40,000 nt of DNA, taken from contig NZ_CP073347.1 of assembly GCF_024397915.1 (NCBI RefSeq), forward strand, positions 2,820,058 to 2,860,057, given 5' to 3'. A program made the position numbers and the translations under genes. Source of the DNA: Marinobacterium rhizophilum. GTDB taxonomy: Bacteria; Pseudomonadota; Gammaproteobacteria; Pseudomonadales; Balneatricaceae. Positions 1,877 through 37,831 of the stretch are shown here, in pieces; positions within the stretch are counted from its first letter, which is position 1; each line of letters opens with the position of its first letter. Below the pieces are notes generated by a model. That model saw nothing but the letters and a program-made list of their open reading frames with translations, was not told where the DNA came from and ran no database searches.

Positions 1877-3343
1877 TTATTCGGCCCAGGGGTTCGGCGT
1901 GTCGCTCAGCCCCAGATAGACGCTCTTCTGTTGCATGTACTCGAGCACGCCCAGGCGTCCCTTTTCGCGACCCAGACCGCTCTCCTTGAAGCCGCCAAAG
2001 GGCGCCGATATGGAGAATTTCTTGTAGGTGTTGATCCAGATGGTGCCGGCCTCCAGCTGGCGACCGATGCGCCAGGCACGGCGGAAATCCTCGCTCCAGA
2101 TGCCGGCCGCAAGACCGAAGACGCTGTTGTTGGCGCGGGCCAGCAGGTCAGCCTCGTCATCGAACTTCAGCACCACCAGCACCGGCCCGAATATCTCTTG
2201 CTGACAGACGCTGGCCCCGTTATCCAGCCCGGCAATGATGGTTGGCGGGTAGTAGCTGCCCTGGGCCATGTGCCCCTCGGCCAGGCGGGTACCGCCACAG
2301 AGGATTTCGCCGCCCTCGGCGCGGGCCTGGTCGACAAAACCGGCCACCGACGCCAGGTGCGCCTCGCTGATCAGCGGTCCCATATGGGTGCCGGGCTCCT
2401 CCGGATGACCGACCCGCAAGTTGGCGGTCAATTCCAGCAGGCGGCCCATGAAGCGGTCATACACCTTGGCATGCACAAACAGGCGCGAGCCGGCGATGCA
2501 GGCCTGGCCCGAGGAGCTGAAGATGCCGTAAACGACACCCCTGGCCGCCAGCTCGATATCCGCATCCTCGAACACGATGGTGGGTGACTTGCCACCCAGT
2601 TCCAGCGACGTCGGAATCAGCTTTTCAGCGGCGACATGGGCCAGGTGGCGCCCGGTGCCGGTGCCGCCGGTAAAGGAGATCTTGCGCACCAGCGGGTGGG
2701 CCGCCAGGGCCTCACCCACCACCGAACCCCGGCCCGGCAGTACACTGAGCAACCCCTTCGGCAGGCCGGCTTCCTCGAACAGTTCGGCCAGAGCCAGCGC
2801 CGCCAGGGGCGTGGCATCGGCGGGCTTGACGATCACCGCATTGCCTGCCGCCAGTGCCGGGGCGATTTTCTGCATTTCGCTGGCAATGGGCGAATTCCAG
2901 GGCGTGATAGCGGCAATAACGCCCAGCGGCTCATGCACGCTCAGGGTCATGAACTCGCTCGAGCGCTGCGCCGGCAGCTGCTCATCCAGGGTTTCGCAGG
3001 CGGCGGCAAAATAGCGCGCAGTAGCCGCGGCACTCATGACCAGGCCGCGGGTTTCGGCCAGTGGCTTGCCGTTGTCCCGGGTCTGCATGGAGGCCAGTTC
3101 ATCGACACGCTGGCTGATCAGGTCCGCCACGCGGTACAGCACCGCCGCCCGCTCGTGGGGCATGCGGTTGCGCCACTGCGGTTCGCGCCAGGCACGTTCC
3201 GCCGCCTGTACGGCCTCTTCCACATCCTCTGCACTGGCCGTGGCGATTTCGGCATTCAGGCTGCCATCGGCCGGAAAATAGGTCGCGCGCACCGGGCCGC
3301 CCCCCTGCTTCCACTGGCCGGCAATAAAGATAGGTTTGGTCAT
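1877..3343 (-). CDS. NAD(P)+-dependent aldehyde dehydrogenase
   Basis: ALDH family motifs are present: ELGGKSP and the catalytic-Cys region FSSSGQACIAGSR. I placed the start at internal ATG 3343 (MTKPIFIAGQW) because GAGGAGA lies 6 nt upstream. The 20 extra N-terminal codons of the track ORF have no RBS. Confidence 0.92.
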   Translation of the reverse strand: MTKPIFIAGQWKQGGGPVRATYFPADGSLNAEIATASAEDVEEAVQAAERAWREPQWRNRMPHERAAVLYRVADLISQRVDELASMQTRDNGKPLAETRGLVMSAAATARYFAAACETLDEQLPAQRSSEFMTLSVHEPLGVIAAITPWNSPIASEMQKIAPALAAGNAVIVKPADATPLAALALAELFEEAGLPKGLLSVLPGRGSVVGEALAAHPLVRKISFTGGTGTGRHLAHVAAEKLIPTSLELGGKSPTIVFEDADIELAARGVVYGIFSSSGQACIAGSRLFVHAKVYDRFMGRLLELTANLRVGHPEEPGTHMGPLISEAHLASVAGFVDQARAEGGEILCGGTRLAEGHMAQGSYYPPTIIAGLDNGASVCQQEIFGPVLVVLKFDDEADLLARANNSVFGLAAGIWSEDFRRAWRIGRQLEAGTIWINTYKKFSISAPFGGFKESGLGREKGRLGVLEYMQQKSVYLGLSDTPNPWAE

Positions 3344-3369
3344 GATTATTCTCCTCGAAGCCCAAGGCT

Positions 3370-4161
3370 TCAGATCAACAGGGACGCGGTGCTGTGCCGG
3401 CACGCCCGGACAACGCTCAGCGCCGCCAGGGTCGACGTCTTGGGATTGCTCGGCAGCGGCAGGCCGCTCAGCTCGAGCTTCATTTCACCGAAACGGCCGC
3501 GGGCGCAGATCAGGTGCTGGTTGCGCTCGATTCCGGGGTCCGCCATCAGCTCGACCCGGGTATCGTCCATGCCGACACCGGCCAGGGCGATGGTCGCCGC
3601 CACATTGGCATTGGCCGGGAACCGCAATGCCGCCTCCCGGGCCGTGCCGCGATAAAACACCGTGGCTTCGGTAATGCTGTCCAGGTCGATCAGGGTTTCG
3701 GCCGGGCTGCCTTTCCAGCTTTTCGGGCTCTTGCGCGCGCAGTACACCACCTCATCCAGCCCCCCTTCTTTCGCCGCCGCCAGGCCATCGATACCGGCGA
3801 TGGCACCGGCCAGCGCATGGATGCGGGCCCGGCCCGCCACCGCCGCGCTCTGCAGCCGGTCCAGCAGCGCATTGTCGGCAAAGGCACCGACCGAAATCAC
3901 GCCCAGGTCCCAGCCCCGTGCCAGCACTGCCTCGCCGTGCTGACGAATTGCGCCCTGGCCGGCACATTCAACCACCAGGTCCGGCGTGCCGTTGCAGGCT
4001 TCGATATCACTGATCACCTGGACACCGGCGGCCACCTGGCCGCGCGCCGCCGCAACGCTAGTTACCGGTACCAGCAGCCACTGCAGGCTGAGGTCTTCGG
4101 GCAGCAGGGCGAGCACTTCGCGGGCCATGGCGCCAAAACCGATCATCATTAACTGTTTCAT
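3370..4161 (-). CDS. Aspartate dehydrogenase domain protein (NadX-like)
   Basis: The protein is about 263 aa. It has an N-terminal Rossmann segment MMIGFGAMAREV, and the C-terminal part (ANANVAATIALAGVG...NPKTSTLAALSV) is typical of L-aspartate dehydrogenase. The start is ATG 4161, preceded by GAGGAAA. Confidence 0.8.
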   Translation of the reverse strand: MKQLMMIGFGAMAREVLALLPEDLSLQWLLVPVTSVAAARGQVAAGVQVISDIEACNGTPDLVVECAGQGAIRQHGEAVLARGWDLGVISVGAFADNALLDRLQSAAVAGRARIHALAGAIAGIDGLAAAKEGGLDEVVYCARKSPKSWKGSPAETLIDLDSITEATVFYRGTAREAALRFPANANVAATIALAGVGMDDTRVELMADPGIERNQHLICARGRFGEMKLELSGLPLPSNPKTSTLAALSVVRACRHSTASLLI

Positions 4162-12438: not shown

Positions 12439-12889
12439 CCCCGCAGAATTCACAGGGGTATGTCATGAAAAGCCTCTGAAAAACACCGAGAATGACTGCA
12501 AAAAATGAATAAAAACAAAAATTAAGCAATTTTTACATGACCCTTAAACCTGGAATCAAAGGGACTCCGAGCCCCCGGAACTCAAAAAAAACATAAAATG
12601 GCAGCGGAAAAATGCACCGGAACTTGGATAAAGCGATAGTTCAAATATGATCAAGTAGCGCGCACGGCAATGCTCGCCTCAACCGCCGGGCGATATGCAG
12701 ACAGGAGAAAAGCCAGCCAGATGGCGACTGTACGCAGGGGCGTTACAGCAAAAACGACAGGAACAGTAACCAGGGAAGTACAACAGGCCAGGCAGGGGTG
12801 CATACAGGCCGCCGGGATCGACAGGATGGGCGACTATCCCGGGCAATTCCGGGCAATCCCGGCGATTTCAGCAAGCGCTATGAAAGCGA

Positions 12890-13080
12890 TCAGAACTGGG
12901 ACGAATGCAGCCCCAGGGTGCGGGACAGGTCTTTGGAGGCCTTGACCACCTCCTCTCGGATGCGGCCGTCGAACGCGTCACGGGACAGGCTTCCCAGCGG
13001 GCAACTTACGCAGCTCGTGTCCACAAAGGCGCAGCGACAATACGCCCAGCTGTTTCAGGAGCTCCAGGCTCAGCACCTAA
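12890..13080 (-). pseudogene. Silent copy A of the iclR 3' end
   Basis: It keeps the TGA stop and the frame for about 39 codons. It differs from the live end at about 4 positions in the first 120 nt; beyond that it is decayed with indels. Confidence 0.85.
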
Positions 13081-13168
13081 GCCGGGATTGGCAGGATGGG
13101 CGACTATCCCGGGCAATCCGGGCAATTCCGGGCAATCCGGACTATTTCAGCAAGCGTTATGAAAGCGA

Positions 13169-13359
13169 TCAGAACTGGGACGAATGCAGCCCCAGGGTGC
13201 GGGACAGCTCTTTGGAGGCCTTGACCACTTCCTCACGGATGCGGCCGTCGAACTCGTCACGGGACAGGCTTCCCAGCGGGCAACTTACGCAGCTCGTGTC
13301 CACAAAGGCGCAGCGACAATACGCCCAGCTGTTTCAGGAGCTCCAGGCTCAGCACCTAA
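13169..13359 (-). pseudogene. Silent copy B of the iclR 3' end
   Basis: As for copy A. There are 4 differences from the live end in 120 nt: one D-to-E change and three synonymous changes. Confidence 0.85.
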
Positions 13360-13447
13360 GCCGGGATTGGCAGGATGGGCGACTATCCCGGGCAATCCGG
13401 GCAATTCCGGGCAATCCGGACTATTTCAGCAAGCGTTATGAAAGCGA

Positions 13448-13638
13448 TCAGAACTGGGACGAATGCAGCCCCAGGGTGCGGGACAGCTCTTTGGAGGCCT
13501 TGACCACTTCCTCACGGATGCGGCCGTCGAACTCGTCACGGGAGAGGCTTCCCGGCGGGCAACTTACGCAGCTCGTGTCCACAAAGGCGCAGCGACAATA
13601 CGCCCAGCTGTTTCAGGAGCTCCAGGCTCAGCACCTAA
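13448..13638 (-). pseudogene. Silent copy C of the iclR 3' end
   Basis: As for copy A. It carries a private L-to-P change (CTG to CCG). Confidence 0.85.
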
Positions 13639-13706
13639 GCCGGGATTGACAGGATGGGCGACCATCCCGGGCAACCCCGGGCAATCCGGACTATTTCAGA
13701 AAGCGA

Positions 13707-14495
13707 TCAGAACTGGGACGAATGCAGCCCCAGGGTGCGGGACAGGTCTTTGGAGGCCTTGACCACCTCCTCACGGATGCGGCCGTCGAACTCGTCACGG
13801 GAGAGGCTTCCCAGCGGGCAACTCACGGAAACCGCAGCCACAATACGCCGGTCATCCACGCTCAGTACCGGTGCCACACAGGCTGCCATGCCGGGATTGA
13901 AGTGCCCCCAGGCAATCGCGGCATCCTTGCCACGGTAACTGCGCACCCGCTCGAGCAAGGCCTCGGGCGTGGCCGGAGTGGTTTCGGTAAAACGCTCGAA
14001 GCCGTAATCCTGGTACAGCTCCAGGATGGCATCATCCGACAGCGTGGACAGCATGAGCTGACCGGTCACGGTAGCATGGGCCGGCCAGCGTGTGCCCACC
14101 GATACGGTACTGGTGAAGGGGCCGGTGGCCTGGAAGCATTCGACAATTACCGTGTTGTGGCCATCGCGAATCAGCAGCTGACTGGCCAGGGTTGTCTGGT
14201 TGCGCAGGTGCTCCAGTATCGGCCGCGAAGGCTCCAGCAACTCCAGGCTGGAGAGGTACTGGAAACCCAGATCCAGGATGCGGGAACTCAGGGTATAGCG
14301 GTTGCTGTCACCGACACGGCGCAGAAAGCCGCAGTTTTCCAGGGTGTACACCAGGCGGAAGGTACTGGAACGGTTCACCCCGATCGCCTCGGCCAGTTCG
14401 GATATCGATTGTTCCCGCTTGTGCTTGCTGAACTGCTGCAACACAGCCAGCCCCCGCACCAGGCCCGGGACTATATAACGGTCATCTGTTTCCAT
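13707..14495 (-). CDS. IclR-family transcriptional regulator
   Basis: It has an N-terminal winged HTH (VPGLVRGLAVLQQF...ISELAEAIGVNRSSTFRLVYTLENCGFL) and a C-terminal IclR effector domain. The start is taken at ATG 14495 (METDDRY); the 41 upstream codons of the track ORF are not IclR-like. Confidence 0.9.
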   Translation of the reverse strand: METDDRYIVPGLVRGLAVLQQFSKHKREQSISELAEAIGVNRSSTFRLVYTLENCGFLRRVGDSNRYTLSSRILDLGFQYLSSLELLEPSRPILEHLRNQTTLASQLLIRDGHNTVIVECFQATGPFTSTVSVGTRWPAHATVTGQLMLSTLSDDAILELYQDYGFERFTETTPATPEALLERVRSYRGKDAAIAWGHFNPGMAACVAPVLSVDDRRIVAAVSVSCPLGSLSRDEFDGRIREEVVKASKDLSRTLGLHSSQF

Positions 14496-19456: not shown

Positions 19457-19490
19457 CGCCCGGCAACCCCTGGTAGCCGGGCGTTTTCGT
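19457..19490 (+). terminator. Rho-independent terminator of the 18890-19444 gene
   Basis: There is a perfect 8-bp stem, CGCCCGGC (19457-19464) / GCCGGGCG (19476-19483), with an 11-nt loop, followed by TTTTCGT. Confidence 0.7.
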
Positions 19491-19800
19491 CCCCGCCCTT
19501 ACCGAAAAACAGCAAGCGGCTGAAGAAGGCACAAGACAAGGGCCGGCTTGCGCCGCCATCAGCCCCATTAGTGCCATCAGCACTACGAAAGATCACTGCA
19601 ATGCTGCCCCTGCCCCTGCCCGCCAGTATCCTGGTAGCCCTGATTTTTAGCCCCCGCTTTTACCGAAAACAGCAAGCGATTGAGGAAGGTACATGACAAG
19701 GGTCGGCTTGCGCCGCCATCAGCCCCATTACTTCCGTACGCACTACGAAAGACCGCTGCAGTACTGCCGCTGCCCGCCAGTATCCTGGTAGCCCTGATTT
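19486..19800. repeat. Two degenerate tandem copies (161 and 154 bp) of the 3' end plus flank of the cox subunit-IV-like gene
   Basis: TTAGCCCCCGtCTTTTcCGAAAA (live, 19801) aligns with TTAGCCCCCGCTTTTACCGAAAA (19647) and TTCGTCCCCGCCCTTACCGAAAA (19486). The shared motifs CGCCATCAGCCCCAT and CCCGCCAGTATCCTGGTAGCCCTGATTT recur with the same spacing. Confidence 0.8.
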
Positions 19801-24767: not shown

Positions 24768-25209
24768 CGATAATCACCCTCGCCCGCCGCCACGCTGACA
24801 GCCTGCTGCAGTCGCCTGCGACAGGCTCGGCACGGCGACCAGCACAGTTGCGCGAGTCGGCCGACCTGAGATGGCATCGGGGCGCGACAGCCGGACGGCA
24901 CCCGAATGGAAACGACACAGGATTGCGCTCAACAGGACCCGGCCAAACCTCTAAAAGCGTAGTGCTGAAGGCAAAAATATGCGAACCCGGCCGCGACGCC
25001 GGTCCGCGATCACAGGCCCGCTCGCCTCTCCCGGACTGTGCATAAGCTGTGGCCAGTTATACAGACGCGATCTTCGAAACAACCCGGCGGCCCGATTTGC
25101 CCACCGCACACTCAAAAATCATGCAGCTTCACAGGAAGCCTGATTTACGGGACCTCTAGCAAAGTACGCGGAGCTTATCCCCAGACTGACCACAGCCTTG
25201 TACAGCCAT

Positions 25210-25254
25210 TCTGTGTGTAACATTCGCGTATCGGAGACACCATTTACACACAGA
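25210..25254. promoter_or_regulatory. Perfect 11-bp inverted repeat with a 23-nt spacer
   Basis: The arms are TCTGTGTGTAA (25210-25220) and TTACACACAGA (25244-25254). It lies in a non-coding region about 450 nt upstream of the oxidase subunit II start. Confidence 0.35.
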
Positions 25255-25404
25255 GACTTATACACAGCGGGAAAAGACGGCCCGGAACAGCAGGGCCAAT
25301 GCCAAGGATCAGCCCTGCGCAAACCGCGCCCACGGCAGAACGTACATCCTGTATAGACCGCTCCTGCGCATCCATGCGCCCGCGGCATACCGTTGTGCCC
25401 TTGC

Positions 25405-25500
25405 TCACACCGTCTCGTTGACCGCCTTTGTCAGTTCCATGATGGCCTTCTTGCCATCACTGAAGCGCATCAGGCAGTTGTCCAGGGCAAAGAACGGCCA
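25405..25500 (-). pseudogene. Silent copy 1 of the pntB 3' end (most diverged)
   Basis: It has a TGA stop and the frame is kept. It carries four private non-synonymous changes (T-to-K, G-to-S, R-to-L, L-to-F). Confidence 0.85.
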
Positions 25501-25572
25501 ATTGTGGATAGCGCAGGCCCGAACCGCACGGCCAGGGACGACCCACCAGGCGGCAGACCGTCGTTCCCTTGC

Positions 25573-25668
25573 TCACACCGTTTCGTTGACCGCCGTTGTC
25601 AGTTCCATGATGGCCTTCTTGCCATCGCCAAACAGCATCAGGCAGCTGTCCCTGGCAAAGAGCGTCCT
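25573..25668 (-). pseudogene. Silent copy 2 of the pntB 3' end
   Basis: It has a TGA stop. Its differences from the live end are mostly synonymous (GTG, GAA, TTT, CTG), plus one N-to-S change. Confidence 0.85.
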
Positions 25669-25740
25669 GTTGTGGATAGCGCAGGCCCGAACTGCACGGC
25701 CAGGGACGGCCCACCAGGCGGCAGACCGTCGTTCCCTTGC

Positions 25741-25836
25741 TCACACCGTTTCGTTGACCGCCGTTGTCAGTTCCATGATGGCCTTCTTGCCATCACCGAA
25801 GAGCATCAGGCAGTTGTCCCGGGCAAAGAGCGTCCT
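25741..25836 (-). pseudogene. Silent copy 3 of the pntB 3' end
   Basis: It has a TGA stop and encodes LFARDNCLMLFGDGKKAIMELTTAVNETV, identical to the live C-terminus. It is embedded in the ATG-initiated 62-codon track ORF 25741..25929. Confidence 0.85.
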
Positions 25837-25962
25837 GTTGTGGATAGCGCAGGCCCGAACCGCACGGCCAGGGACGGCCCACCAGGCGGCAGCCCGTACA
25901 TCCTGTATAGACCGCTCCTGCGCATCCATGCGCCCGCGGCATACCGTACATCCTGTACATAC

Positions 25963-26058
25963 CTAAACCGTTTCGTTGACCGCCGTTGTCAGCTCCATGA
26001 TGGCCTTCTTGCCATCACCGAAGAGCATCAGGCAGCTGTCCCTGGCGAAGAGCGGCCA
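25963..26058 (-). pseudogene. Silent copy 4 of the pntB 3' end (TAG type)
   Basis: It shares the TAG stop and the GTT and GAG codon states with the live gene. Like the live gene, it is directly preceded by the ~50-nt X element. Confidence 0.85.
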
Positions 26059-26130
26059 ATTGTGGATAGCGCAGGCCCGAACTGCACGGCCAGGGACGGC
26101 CCACCAGGCGGCAGACCGTCGTTCCCTTGC

Positions 26131-26226
26131 TCACACCGTTTCGTTGACCGCCGTTGTCAGTTCCATGATGGCCTTCTTGCCATCGCCGAAGCGCATCAGG
26201 CAGTTGTCCCGGGCAAAGAGCGCCCT
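26131..26226 (-). pseudogene. Silent copy 5 of the pntB 3' end
   Basis: It has a TGA stop, three synonymous differences and one L-to-R change. Confidence 0.85.
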
Positions 26227-26294
26227 GTTGTGGATAGCGCAGGCCCGAACTGCGCATCCATGCGCCCGCGGCATACCGTACATCCTGTACATAC

Positions 26295-27689
26295 CTAAAC
26301 CGTTTCGTTGACCGCCGTTGTCAGCTCCATGATGGCCTTCTTGCCATCGCCGAAGAGCATCAGGCAGTTGTCCCTGGCAAAGAGCGGGTTGGGCAGGCCC
26401 GCAAAGCCCGGGCTCAGGCTGCGCTTGACCACCACCACGGTACGCGCCTTGTCGACGTTCAGGATCGGCATGCCGTAGATCGGGCTGCCCTTGTCTTCCC
26501 GCGCCATGGGATTGGTGACATCGTTGGCGCCGATCACAATGGCCACGTCCGTCTGTTCGAACAGCGCATTGACCTCCTCCATCGGCTGCATCTTGTCGTA
26601 GGCGACCTCGGCTTCGGCCAGCAGCACGTTCATGTGGCCGGGCATGCGCCCCGCCACCGGATGCAGGCCATAGATCACCTCGATGCCGCGCCGCTCCAGC
26701 GAGTCGGCCAGGTCGCGCACCGCGTGCTGCGCCTGGGCCATGGCCAGGCCAAAGCCCGGCACGATCACCACGCGGCGGGCGCTCTCGAGCAGCATGCCCA
26801 CTTCCTCCGGCGAGGACGACTTCACCTTGCCGGCATAGACCTCATCGGCATCCATCACGGCCCCACCGGCCTCGGCAGCCGAACCAAAGAGTACCGCGGT
26901 GAGGGAACGGTTCATGGCCACGCACATGATGCGGGTGAGGATAATGCCCGACGCCCCCACCAGGGCACCGGACACCACCAGCACGCTGTTACCCATGATG
27001 AACCCCGCCGCCGCCGCCGCCAGCCCCGAGTAGGAATTCAGCAGGGCTATCACCACCGGCATGTCAGCACCACCAATGGGCATGACCAGGGTTACCCCCA
27101 GCACCAGGGCCAGCACTGTGAGCAATACCAGGGTGCTGCTGTCACCGCTGCCGCTGATAAGTGAGCCCGCCAGTGCCAGCACGGCGGCAAAGAGCGCCAG
27201 GTTCAGGCCGCCCATGCCCCGGAAACCCAGCGGCCGACCCGGCAGCAGTTCCTGCAGCTTGGCAAAGGCCACCGCACTGCCGCTGAGGGTAACCGCGCCA
27301 ATCAGCAGCGTCAGGCAGATGGCCACCAGTGCCACCAGCCCCTGGGGGCCTGCGGTCGCGGTCTGGCCCAGAAAACTGGCCGCCGCCACGCAGAGCGATG
27401 CACCGCCACCAAAGCCGTTGAGCAGCGCCACCATCTGCGGCATCGCCGTCATCTGGATGCGGATCGCCAGCACCGTGCCGACCAGCGACCCCAGCACCAC
27501 GCCACCGAGTATCCATTCATAGGACAGGATCGACCGATCCAGCAGGGTCACCACCACCGCCACCAGCATGCCGATAGCCGCCATCTGGTTGCCACGCACC
27601 GCGGTACGCGGCCGGGTCAGGCCCTTGATGCCACCGACGAACAGCATGGCCGCCAGCAGGTAAAAACCATCAACCAGCAACAGATTCAT
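26295..27689 (-). CDS. pntB: NAD(P) transhydrogenase subunit beta
   Basis: The protein is 464 aa, with a membrane domain followed by a dIII NADP(H) domain (VIIVPGFGLAMAQAQH...GANDVTNP...VVVKRS). It lies in pntAA-pntAB-pntB order. Confidence 0.95.
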   Translation of the reverse strand: MNLLLVDGFYLLAAMLFVGGIKGLTRPRTAVRGNQMAAIGMLVAVVVTLLDRSILSYEWILGGVVLGSLVGTVLAIRIQMTAMPQMVALLNGFGGGASLCVAAASFLGQTATAGPQGLVALVAICLTLLIGAVTLSGSAVAFAKLQELLPGRPLGFRGMGGLNLALFAAVLALAGSLISGSGDSSTLVLLTVLALVLGVTLVMPIGGADMPVVIALLNSYSGLAAAAAGFIMGNSVLVVSGALVGASGIILTRIMCVAMNRSLTAVLFGSAAEAGGAVMDADEVYAGKVKSSSPEEVGMLLESARRVVIVPGFGLAMAQAQHAVRDLADSLERRGIEVIYGLHPVAGRMPGHMNVLLAEAEVAYDKMQPMEEVNALFEQTDVAIVIGANDVTNPMAREDKGSPIYGMPILNVDKARTVVVVKRSLSPGFAGLPNPLFARDNCLMLFGDGKKAIMELTTAVNETV

Positions 27690-37582: not shown

Positions 37583-37736
37583 GATCACAGCCTCCGTTAT
37601 TGTTTTTGGTGGGGCCTTGTAGAGTTCAGGTCAAAGGTCGCCGTGCCTGCACAACAACTTTTTACCAAACGGTAAATTTAACTTACACCATATTTTGCCA
37701 AGTGGTCAAATATTTTTACAGGCATCGAAAGAAGCA

Positions 37737-37831
37737 GGGGGAAGGGGGAAGGGGGAAGGGGGAAGGTTCAAGGGACAAGGGACAAGGGACAAGGGACAAG
37801 GAGTGTAAGGAGCAAGGGGCACGGGGCAAGG
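37737..37831. repeat. 7-nt-periodic G-run microsatellite: (GGGGGAA)x4, (GGGACAA)x4, and degenerate GGGGCAx units
   Basis: G5 runs lie at 37737-41, 37744-48, 37751-55 and 37758-62. G3 runs lie at 37772-74, 37779-81, 37786-88 and 37793-95. The sequence GGAGCAAGGGGCACGGGGCAAGG follows. Confidence 0.9.

Follow-up and report, generated by a model that had tools for sequence, protein, structure and literature searches.

Tandem copies of the pntB gene end in Marinobacterium rhizophilum: anatomy, origin and synonymous variation

How could unexpressed fragments of a gene come to differ from it mainly at synonymous positions? This question is raised by a locus in the genome of Marinobacterium rhizophilum, where pntB, which encodes the beta subunit of NAD(P) transhydrogenase, is followed by five extra copies of its last 87 coding nucleotides and stop codon, arranged head-to-tail downstream of the live gene end. 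We analyzed the 40,000-nt stretch of contig NZ_CP073347.1 that contains the locus (hereafter the window). A preliminary description had reported that these silent copies vary mostly at synonymous sites and always keep a stop codon, and had proposed that they spent time as the expressed end of the gene. The locus is a duplication array of an ordinary type; it adds one more case of a known event and does not represent a new genetic system. We consider it fairly probable that this array was born from microhomology, includes the live end as one of its units, and has been reshuffled by exchange, the synonymous excess stemming from selection in the expressed position.

Anatomy and origin of the pntB array

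The array consists of the live pntB end and the silent copies c5 to c1, with c1 the most distal (Table 1). The start-to-start spacings of the six coding ends are 164, 168, 222, 168 and 168 nt. Tandem Repeats Finder (TRF) reports a period of 168 nt with 3.1 and 2.8 copies and 81–92% matches, the constant head-to-tail period of a tandem array. The single 222-nt period is due to the tail of c4, which is 54 nt longer and carries an element resembling repetitive extragenic palindromic sequences (REP-like element). The 168-nt unit consists of the last 90 nt of pntB (87 nt plus the stop codon) and 78 nt of native downstream DNA. Two types of tail are present. In type A tails, found after c5, c3 and c2, the stop codon TGA is followed by GCAAGGGAACGACGG and, further on, GCGCTATCCACAA. 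In type B tails, found at the live end and c4, the stop codon is TAG and a REP-like element with the core CCGCGGGCGCATGGATGCGCA follows directly. The REP-like insertions are secondary and present in some units only; otherwise the unit is one contiguous native stretch. Past c1 there are spacer remnants, and then an intergenic region that is orthologous in the closest relative with the same gene order (L081).

The origin of the unit can be read from unduplicated relatives. We examined nine loci (L004 and L081–L088), which represent four lineages with 94–96% protein identity: M. profundum, a Marinobacterium metagenome-assembled genome (MAG), and two groups of metagenomic contigs. All nine have a single pntB end. 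The sequence GCAAG after the stop codon is kept in eight of them, the exception being L081, and the type A tail is therefore ancestral. The type A spacer aligns to the 80 nt behind the single-copy pntB of M. profundum (L082) with a score of 25.5, compared with 10.0 ± 1.5 for shuffled sequences, and the alignment breaks off precisely where the next coding end begins. In the same unduplicated locus the hexanucleotide CGCTGT occurs at position -91 from the stop codon, inside pntB, and again at +77, exactly 168 nt apart. The native spacer, together with direct repeats at unit-length spacing, points to tandem duplication between short direct repeats and not to attachment sites.

Local and semi-global alignments did not identify a significant decayed second pntB end downstream of the gene in M. 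profundum, L004, L081 or L083 compared with shuffled sequences. One candidate for a hidden copy in L083 was rejected, being just a 13-nt exact match, AGCGGCGGTGAAC, with a nominal p of 0.01. A metagenome scan for the junction motif GGGCCTGCGCTATCCACAA returned three unrelated chance matches only. The closest pntB relative with the same gene order, L081 (a JGI contig with 96% identity), is without gene-end copies; at 3230–3360, downstream of its pntB, a different hairpin element, about 75 nt long (GGTTTCCTGAAAACGG.TCCTG.GTTTTCAGGAT), occurs twice.

Two small ATG-initiated open reading frames (ORFs) of 53 and 62 amino acids run into c5 and c3. We treat them as chance, as their start positions differ between units and a GC-rich spacer of 26 codons should be open about half the time.

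Table 1. Features of the pntB, iclR and cyoD arrays and associated repeats (window coordinates)
Feature	Coordinates	Strand	Remarks
pntB, NAD(P) transhydrogenase beta subunit	26295..27689	-	Pfam PNTB, E = 4e-175; stop 26295-26297
Unit 0, live pntB end	coding 26298-26384; TAG 26295-26297	-	First array unit
Live-unit tail, type B, 74 nt	26221..26294	-	REP-like element of the 52-nt family right after TAG, then junction motif GTTCGGGCCTGCGCTATCCACAACAGGGCG
Silent copy c5, 87 nt + TGA	26131..26220 (coding 26134-26220)	-	4/87 nt differ from live end, one non-synonymous (L to R)
Type A spacer, 78 nt	26053..26130	-	Native pntB-downstream DNA; GC-rich hairpin and CTATCCACA
Silent copy c4, 87 nt + TAG	25963..26052 (coding 25966-26052)	-	3/87 nt differ from live end; stop and REP-like tail haplotype as in live end
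c4 spacer, 132 nt	25831..25962	-	Type A, first 16 nt replaced by ~1.4 copies of REP-like element
Silent copy c3, 87 nt + TGA	25741..25830 (coding 25744-25830)	-	Encoded peptide identical to live end
Silent copy c2, 87 nt + TGA	25573..25662 (coding 25576-25662)	-	Ancestral CTG TTT at codons 10-11 kept (orthologue comparison)
Silent copy c1, 87 nt + TGA	25405..25494 (coding 25408-25494)	-	Terminal, most decayed; four private non-synonymous changes
Terminal spacer after c1	25290..25404	-	Diverged, REP-like insertion; leads into native intergenic region upstream of cox operon
REP-like element	31-141, 25337-25388, 25890-25962, 26240-26294	minus-strand sense	At end of TPP-enzyme gene; in tails of c1, c4 and live pntB
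iclR array, three silent units of 279/279/270 nt	12811..13706	-	Live gene 13707-14495; Pfam IclR_C, HTH_IclR
iclR-tail microsatellite	12839-12870, 13109-13140, 13388-13419, 13665-13690
cyoD (COX4_pro) array, two further, older copies of gene end and downstream DNA	19469..19800 (to 19823)	-	Period ~160, ~80% identity

Variation and exchange among the units

A codon-aware alignment of the last 29 codons of the live pntB end and the five copies confirms the counts of the preliminary description. Eight sites are synonymous (nt 6, 10, 30, 33, 36, 60, 81 and 87 of 87) and six are non-synonymous (nt 1, 11, 17, 29, 34 and 68). The changes at nt 1, 11, 34 and 68 are private to c1, leaving a ratio of 7:2 when this copy is set aside. 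For iclR, a second gene of the window with silent 3' ends, the comparison of 39 codons of the live end and three copies likewise reproduces the earlier count of four synonymous to three non-synonymous sites. Every pntB copy does keep a stop codon, which is TGA in c5, c3, c2 and c1 and, as in the live end, TAG in c4. Retention in five of five copies is not significant, since at about 5% divergence we estimate that roughly half of such arrays would keep all of their stops. The reported gradient of conservation toward the stop codon is also present, with 10 of the 14 variable pntB sites in the first 36 of 87 nt (P = 0.02) and all seven variable iclR sites in the first 81 of 117 nt.

Random changes in the pntB end are expected to be synonymous in a fraction of 0.23–0.29 for transition/transversion ratios (κ) of 1–5. 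Compared with this null, the 8 of 14 synonymous sites in pntB give P = 0.005–0.024, and the 7 of 9 without c1 give P = 0.0007–0.003. The 4 of 7 sites in iclR are not significant alone (P = 0.08–0.15, κ-based null 0.26–0.32), and the pooled 12 of 21 give P = 0.002–0.02 (null 0.25–0.33). When the pntB variants are read in the two wrong frames, three and two are synonymous, compared with eight in the true frame. Summed over pairs by the Nei-Gojobori method, the ratio of non-synonymous to synonymous differences per site (pN/pS) is 0.21 for pntB and 0.25 for iclR, while for c1 compared with c3 and c5 pN is about equal to pS. The low ratio anticipated in the preliminary description is thus present, but its significance depends on the null chosen. 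The synonymous excess is real in the data, specific to the reading frame and present in two arrays. However, with 21 sites it is statistically modest and is not decisive.

Mutational hot spots, raised earlier as an alternative source of the pattern, do not account for it, whether CpG or GC-to-AT. At three synonymous sites a C/T variant precedes a G; M. rhizophilum is not known to methylate CpG. The synonymous changes that can be polarized run mostly from AT to GC (nt 6, 33, 81 and 87), which is the opposite of what a deamination hot spot predicts, whereas four of the six non-synonymous changes run from GC to AT. This contrast fits substitutions filtered in an expressed, GC3-rich gene as opposed to raw decay mutations, although it is not significant at these numbers.

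Exchange between units, the other part of the earlier proposal, can be seen in the distribution of the variants. In the four-gamete test, 11 of 28 pairs of informative sites have every combination of alleles, and the minimum number of recombination events (Rm) is at least 2 within 90 nt. Along the array, nt 10 is alternately A and C. Identical states at nt 60 and nt 87, the TAG stop and the REP-like tail unite c4 with the live unit, with c5, of type A, lying between them; this suggests a two-unit block duplication that probably involved the live end. Ancestral states are also scattered: c2 alone keeps CTG TTT where the live gene and the other copies carry replacements, and the ancestral GAG and GTT are kept in the live end and c4. 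Two lineage-specific changes are common to all six units, CTC at nt 3 and Ala to Thr at nt 67. The live end opens the head-to-tail array, and every unequal crossover will therefore leave a chimeric unit where expression takes place.

Simple decay in isolation therefore does not describe the copies, which are mosaic with respect both to one another and to the live end. From the mosaicism and the haplotype shared with c4, exchange or duplication has involved the live unit, as either donor or recipient. The proposal that the copies once exchanged with the expressed end draws partial support from the mosaicism, the c4 haplotype and a pN/pS near 0.2, but gains none from stop retention, and the statistics fade under alternative nulls discussed below.

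Other gene-end arrays and repeats in the window

The window PntB is 100% identical to a M. rhizophilum protein in NCBI (P0001). The gene follows pntAA and pntAB and precedes the cytochrome oxidase (cox) operon, and the 34 plausible genes of the window all have metabolic or respiratory roles. A scan of these 34 genes identified 3' end copies downstream of pntB, iclR and cyoD only, each the last gene of its transcription unit, and no 5' end copies upstream of any gene. A search for further decayed copies outside the arrays found none. Pfam scans of the 34 genes, and of spurious ORFs across the arrays, identified no integrase, transposase or resolvase in the 40 kb. The units of the three arrays show no similarity to one another above shuffled controls on either strand.

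A silent iclR unit begins with a scrambled 5' part of 82 nt, continues with the final 117 nt of iclR and a TGA stop, and closes with a tail whose end is CAATCCCGGC. This repeat bounds the units and also precedes the first unit inside the gene. The 117 coding nucleotides are about 97% identical to the live end. The 82-nt 5' parts are identical in all three copies and scrambled relative to the live gene, and the boundary with the maintained part is sharp. Only islands of this part resemble the gene, such as GGCGTATTGTsGCTGCG (16/17), and its global alignment gives p = 0.09. In addition, the tail of each unit contains a 9-nt microsatellite, (CCGGGCAAT)n, that varies in repeat number between units.

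A related arrangement exists outside M. rhizophilum. An Oceanospirillaceae MAG (L093) whose IclR is 78% identical has a decayed second iclR copy at 3579–3640, 290 nt past the stop codon. The copy starts at the M. rhizophilum unit boundary CCCGGC|ATGG and scores 34, compared with 12 ± 1.5 for controls. Judged from this alignment, it may be either an ancient shared duplication or the product of a recurrent breakpoint. The same test found no decayed second copy in L092, L094 or L095, which include closer relatives. In one of these, M. aestuariivivens (L094 3590–3700), the iclR orthologue appears frameshifted near the FNPGMA motif and is called as pieces of 230 and 60 amino acids; this may be either a pseudogene or a sequencing error.

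The cyoD array sits between convergent genes, with its junction at the direct repeat GCTGATGGC.

Several further repeats were observed in the window. The 52-nt REP-like family, with the core CCGCGGRYRCAKGGATGYGCA, has 5 matches compared with 0.06 expected, and abuts stop codons. The third base of the TAG stop in type B pntB units belongs to this element. At a thiamine pyrophosphate (TPP)-enzyme gene (140–1789), 2.1 tandem copies of the element lie against the stop codon. Sites similar to the DnaA box (TTATNCACA, at most one mismatch) number 16 in the whole window, compared with 3.8 expected. Eight of these are in the pntB-cox intergenic region (25037–26237), and five of the eight correspond to CTATCCACA of the array spacers. 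A heptanucleotide repeat, AGGGGCA, occurs in 13.4 copies at 37736–37831, in an intergenic region after radical-SAM (CofH/CofG-like) genes.

Explanations, known systems and implications

According to the explanation that we favor, the array would have originated in one microhomology-mediated tandem duplication of the 168-bp segment straddling the pntB stop. Homologous unequal crossing-over and gene conversion between units would then have expanded and reshuffled it, with a probable duplication of a two-unit block and the insertion of a small REP-like element in some tails. pntB itself would be unharmed, the first unit completing the gene and the remaining units being unexpressed relics. Expansion, contraction or conversion could either copy the live end to a silent place or fuse the gene to a silent or chimeric unit, and the expressed position would tolerate only units without damaging amino-acid changes. 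The copies would come to mix two types of change, namely substitutions that have passed purifying selection (mainly synonymous and mostly AT to GC) and raw decay mutations. Decay would be most visible in the terminal c1, because exchange is least frequent for units at the edge of an array. The other two arrays of the window, at iclR and cyoD, would have arisen by the same process. The anatomy, the native spacer, the 168-nt-spaced repeats of the unduplicated relative, the mosaicism and the pN/pS near 0.2 are observed; we infer both the recombination mechanism and selection on the expressed position as the cause of the synonymous excess. That units passed through, or were copied from, the selected live position is the simplest explanation of the bias and has moderate support.

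Several observations weigh against this explanation. If the live lineage is allowed to add only synonymous changes, histories of a snapshot type raise the synonymous fraction expected by chance to about 0.35–0.43 by our own derivation. At a null of 0.40 the pooled P, from 21 variable sites only, becomes 0.085, and P is generally about 0.08–0.15 once a selected live lineage may contribute in this manner. In c5, c3 and c2, the units that can be compared in full, diversity is highest at synonymous sites (mean 0.13), intermediate in the spacer (0.043) and lowest at non-synonymous sites (0.02). Greater diversity of synonymous sites than of the spacer is not expected from simple exchange, unless the spacer hairpin or motif is itself constrained, and the ranking does suggest that the pntB spacer is constrained. 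The scrambled 5' part of the iclR units, adjacent to a part maintained at about 97% identity, requires the extra assumption that conversion is limited to the part that is still homologous. Finally, the cyoD copies are 7 nt longer and out of frame, and preservation of coding capacity is therefore not general among the arrays.

One alternative is that the same tandem duplication occurred but the silent copies are wholly neutral, with the excess reflecting sampling noise plus a selected live lineage and no copy ever returning to expression. We regard this as unlikely. Under nulls of 0.33–0.40 the pntB counts give P = 0.05–0.15 and the pooled counts 0.02–0.085, the synonymous pattern was noticed post hoc, and decay is plain in the cyoD copies and in the near equality of pN and pS for c1, with iclR not significant by itself. 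However, the 7:2 ratio without c1 retains P = 0.025 even at a null of 0.4. The concentration of synonymous variants in the true frame and the pN/pS of 0.2–0.25 in two independent arrays also argue against purely neutral copies, and the mosaicism proves that sequence has been exchanged between units.

The preliminary description had also raised import from orthologous alleles. Here homologous recombination with DNA of related strains or species would have replaced the live end of pntB as far as its stop codon, and turnover of the array would have moved foreign ends to silent positions. The expectation that silent variants would exist as live alleles elsewhere is borne out at six of the eight synonymous sites, where both alleles are live in orthologues, but the six non-synonymous variants are all absent from the orthologues. 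Import also predicts the greater diversity of synonymous sites compared with the spacer, as only the part shared with the donor would be affected. However, the matching states that can be polarized (CTG, TTT, GAG and GTT) are ancestral, so that simple retention explains them and import is not needed. The live end differs from orthologues at 8–10 positions and the copies at 8–19; overall, the live end is at least as close to every orthologue as any silent copy, and the two lineage-specific changes carried by all six units speak against foreign ends. We consider import quite improbable.

A further alternative is that amplification was selected for the spacer, with the coding end hitch-hiking. 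The spacer would act as a putative cluster of protein-binding sites, or as a transcriptional insulator before the cox operon, through its predicted, conserved GC-rich hairpin and its DnaA-box-like CTATCCACA. In favor of this, GCGCTATCCACAA is conserved at 13 of 13 positions downstream of pntB in M. profundum (L082 5455–5467), amid DNA that has otherwise diverged. The eight DnaA-box-like sites of the intergenic region alone exceed the number expected for the whole window, and the spacer is less diverse than synonymous sites. However, the iclR and cyoD arrays lack such a shared motif. The folding z-scores of the spacers are unremarkable (-0.4 to -1.4), no promoter or canonical terminator was detected in the pntB array, and a search of the spacers against Rfam gave no match at gathering or E <= 1 thresholds, with the exception of a spurious miRNA match. 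In addition, the putative binding motif is one mismatch off the DnaA-box consensus. Selection for the spacer appears very improbable as the reason for the array.

Scars of successive integrative elements, each bringing a replacement gene end to the pntB 3' end that later decayed, would yield displaced 3' ends stacked behind a live gene, with the two stop and tail haplotypes as possible traces, but are effectively refuted and scarcely credible here, given that type A units are purely native with spacers orthologous to the M. profundum downstream DNA, that the junction falls at 168-nt-spaced direct repeats already in the unduplicated relative, and that the 40 kb hold no integrase or transposase and the three arrays no common core motif.

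Among known systems, the array is most readily compared with minisatellites and with microhomology-mediated tandem duplications (MTDs). In bacteria, minisatellites or variable-number tandem repeats (VNTRs) are exemplified by the mycobacterial interspersed repetitive unit (MIRU)-VNTR loci of Mycobacterium tuberculosis. In common with these classes, the pntB array has native head-to-tail units, short direct repeats at a fixed spacing, probable expansion and contraction by homologous misalignment, and edge units that are the most diverged. Microhomology marks the junctions, with CGCTGT for pntB, as seen in M. profundum, and CAATCCCGGC for iclR. However, the units of the pntB type are long (160–280 nt) and straddle the stop codon, so each contains a complete gene end. 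They are also 3–12% diverged and mosaic, not near-identical, and three arrays occur at operon ends within 40 kb. MTDs have been described in S. pombe (bioRxiv 10.1101/2020.03.03.972455). Our literature search found general work of this kind on microhomology duplication and nothing on gene-end arrays in Marinobacterium.

Silent cassettes that recombine with an expressed gene are known from pilE/pilS of Neisseria, vlsE of Borrelia and the MgPa repeats of Mycoplasma. There, and probably here too, unexpressed partial copies exchange with an expressed copy by homologous recombination. However, in those systems variation is overwhelmingly non-synonymous and serves to diversify the amino acids of surface proteins, whereas the pntB copies are simple tandem repeats of a housekeeping gene with mostly synonymous differences. 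Diverse encoded peptides are not found, as c3 encodes the live peptide and c5, c4 and c2 are each one residue off. Nothing suggests a dedicated mechanism or benefit for the pntB array.

Orphan C-terminal toxin/immunity cassettes occur downstream of rhs and cdiA genes, and they too are displaced 3' ends stacked behind a full gene and able to recombine through shared homology. They encode different toxins with immunity genes and are horizontally acquired, whereas the pntB ends encode essentially the same 29 residues with native spacers. Tandem accretion of integrative elements at gene 3' ends is known from the integrative and conjugative elements (ICEs) ICESt1 and ICESt3 at fda and from cis-mobilizable elements. 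Accretion also leaves 3' end repeats in direct orientation behind an intact gene. Unlike it, the pntB array is without a recombinase, foreign DNA between the repeats or a common core, and its junction is explained by pre-existing direct repeats.

Gene-end arrays occur at three of about eight transcription-unit ends in the 40 kb, and at no 5' end. It is conceivable, though improbable on present evidence, that duplication of operon ends is unusually active in M. rhizophilum, perhaps through replication stalling at stable hairpins or REP-like elements behind stop codons. The arrays might then be kept for long periods by concerted evolution, and near-synonymous copies close by would serve as a reservoir from which the ends of housekeeping genes are constantly overwritten. 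The decayed iclR copy in the Oceanospirillaceae MAG, with its shared 5' boundary, would fit a long-lived or recurrent duplication process. The high density of gene-end arrays in this genome would be important only if a genome-wide count bore it out.

The pntB array calls for care in annotation and in scans for selection, because a fragment that shows a low dN/dS is not necessarily expressed. More generally, it shows in detail how a microhomology duplication across a stop codon can endure without harm, enlarge into an array and undergo concerted evolution with the live end of the gene; the repeats that served as its substrate can still be seen in a sister species.

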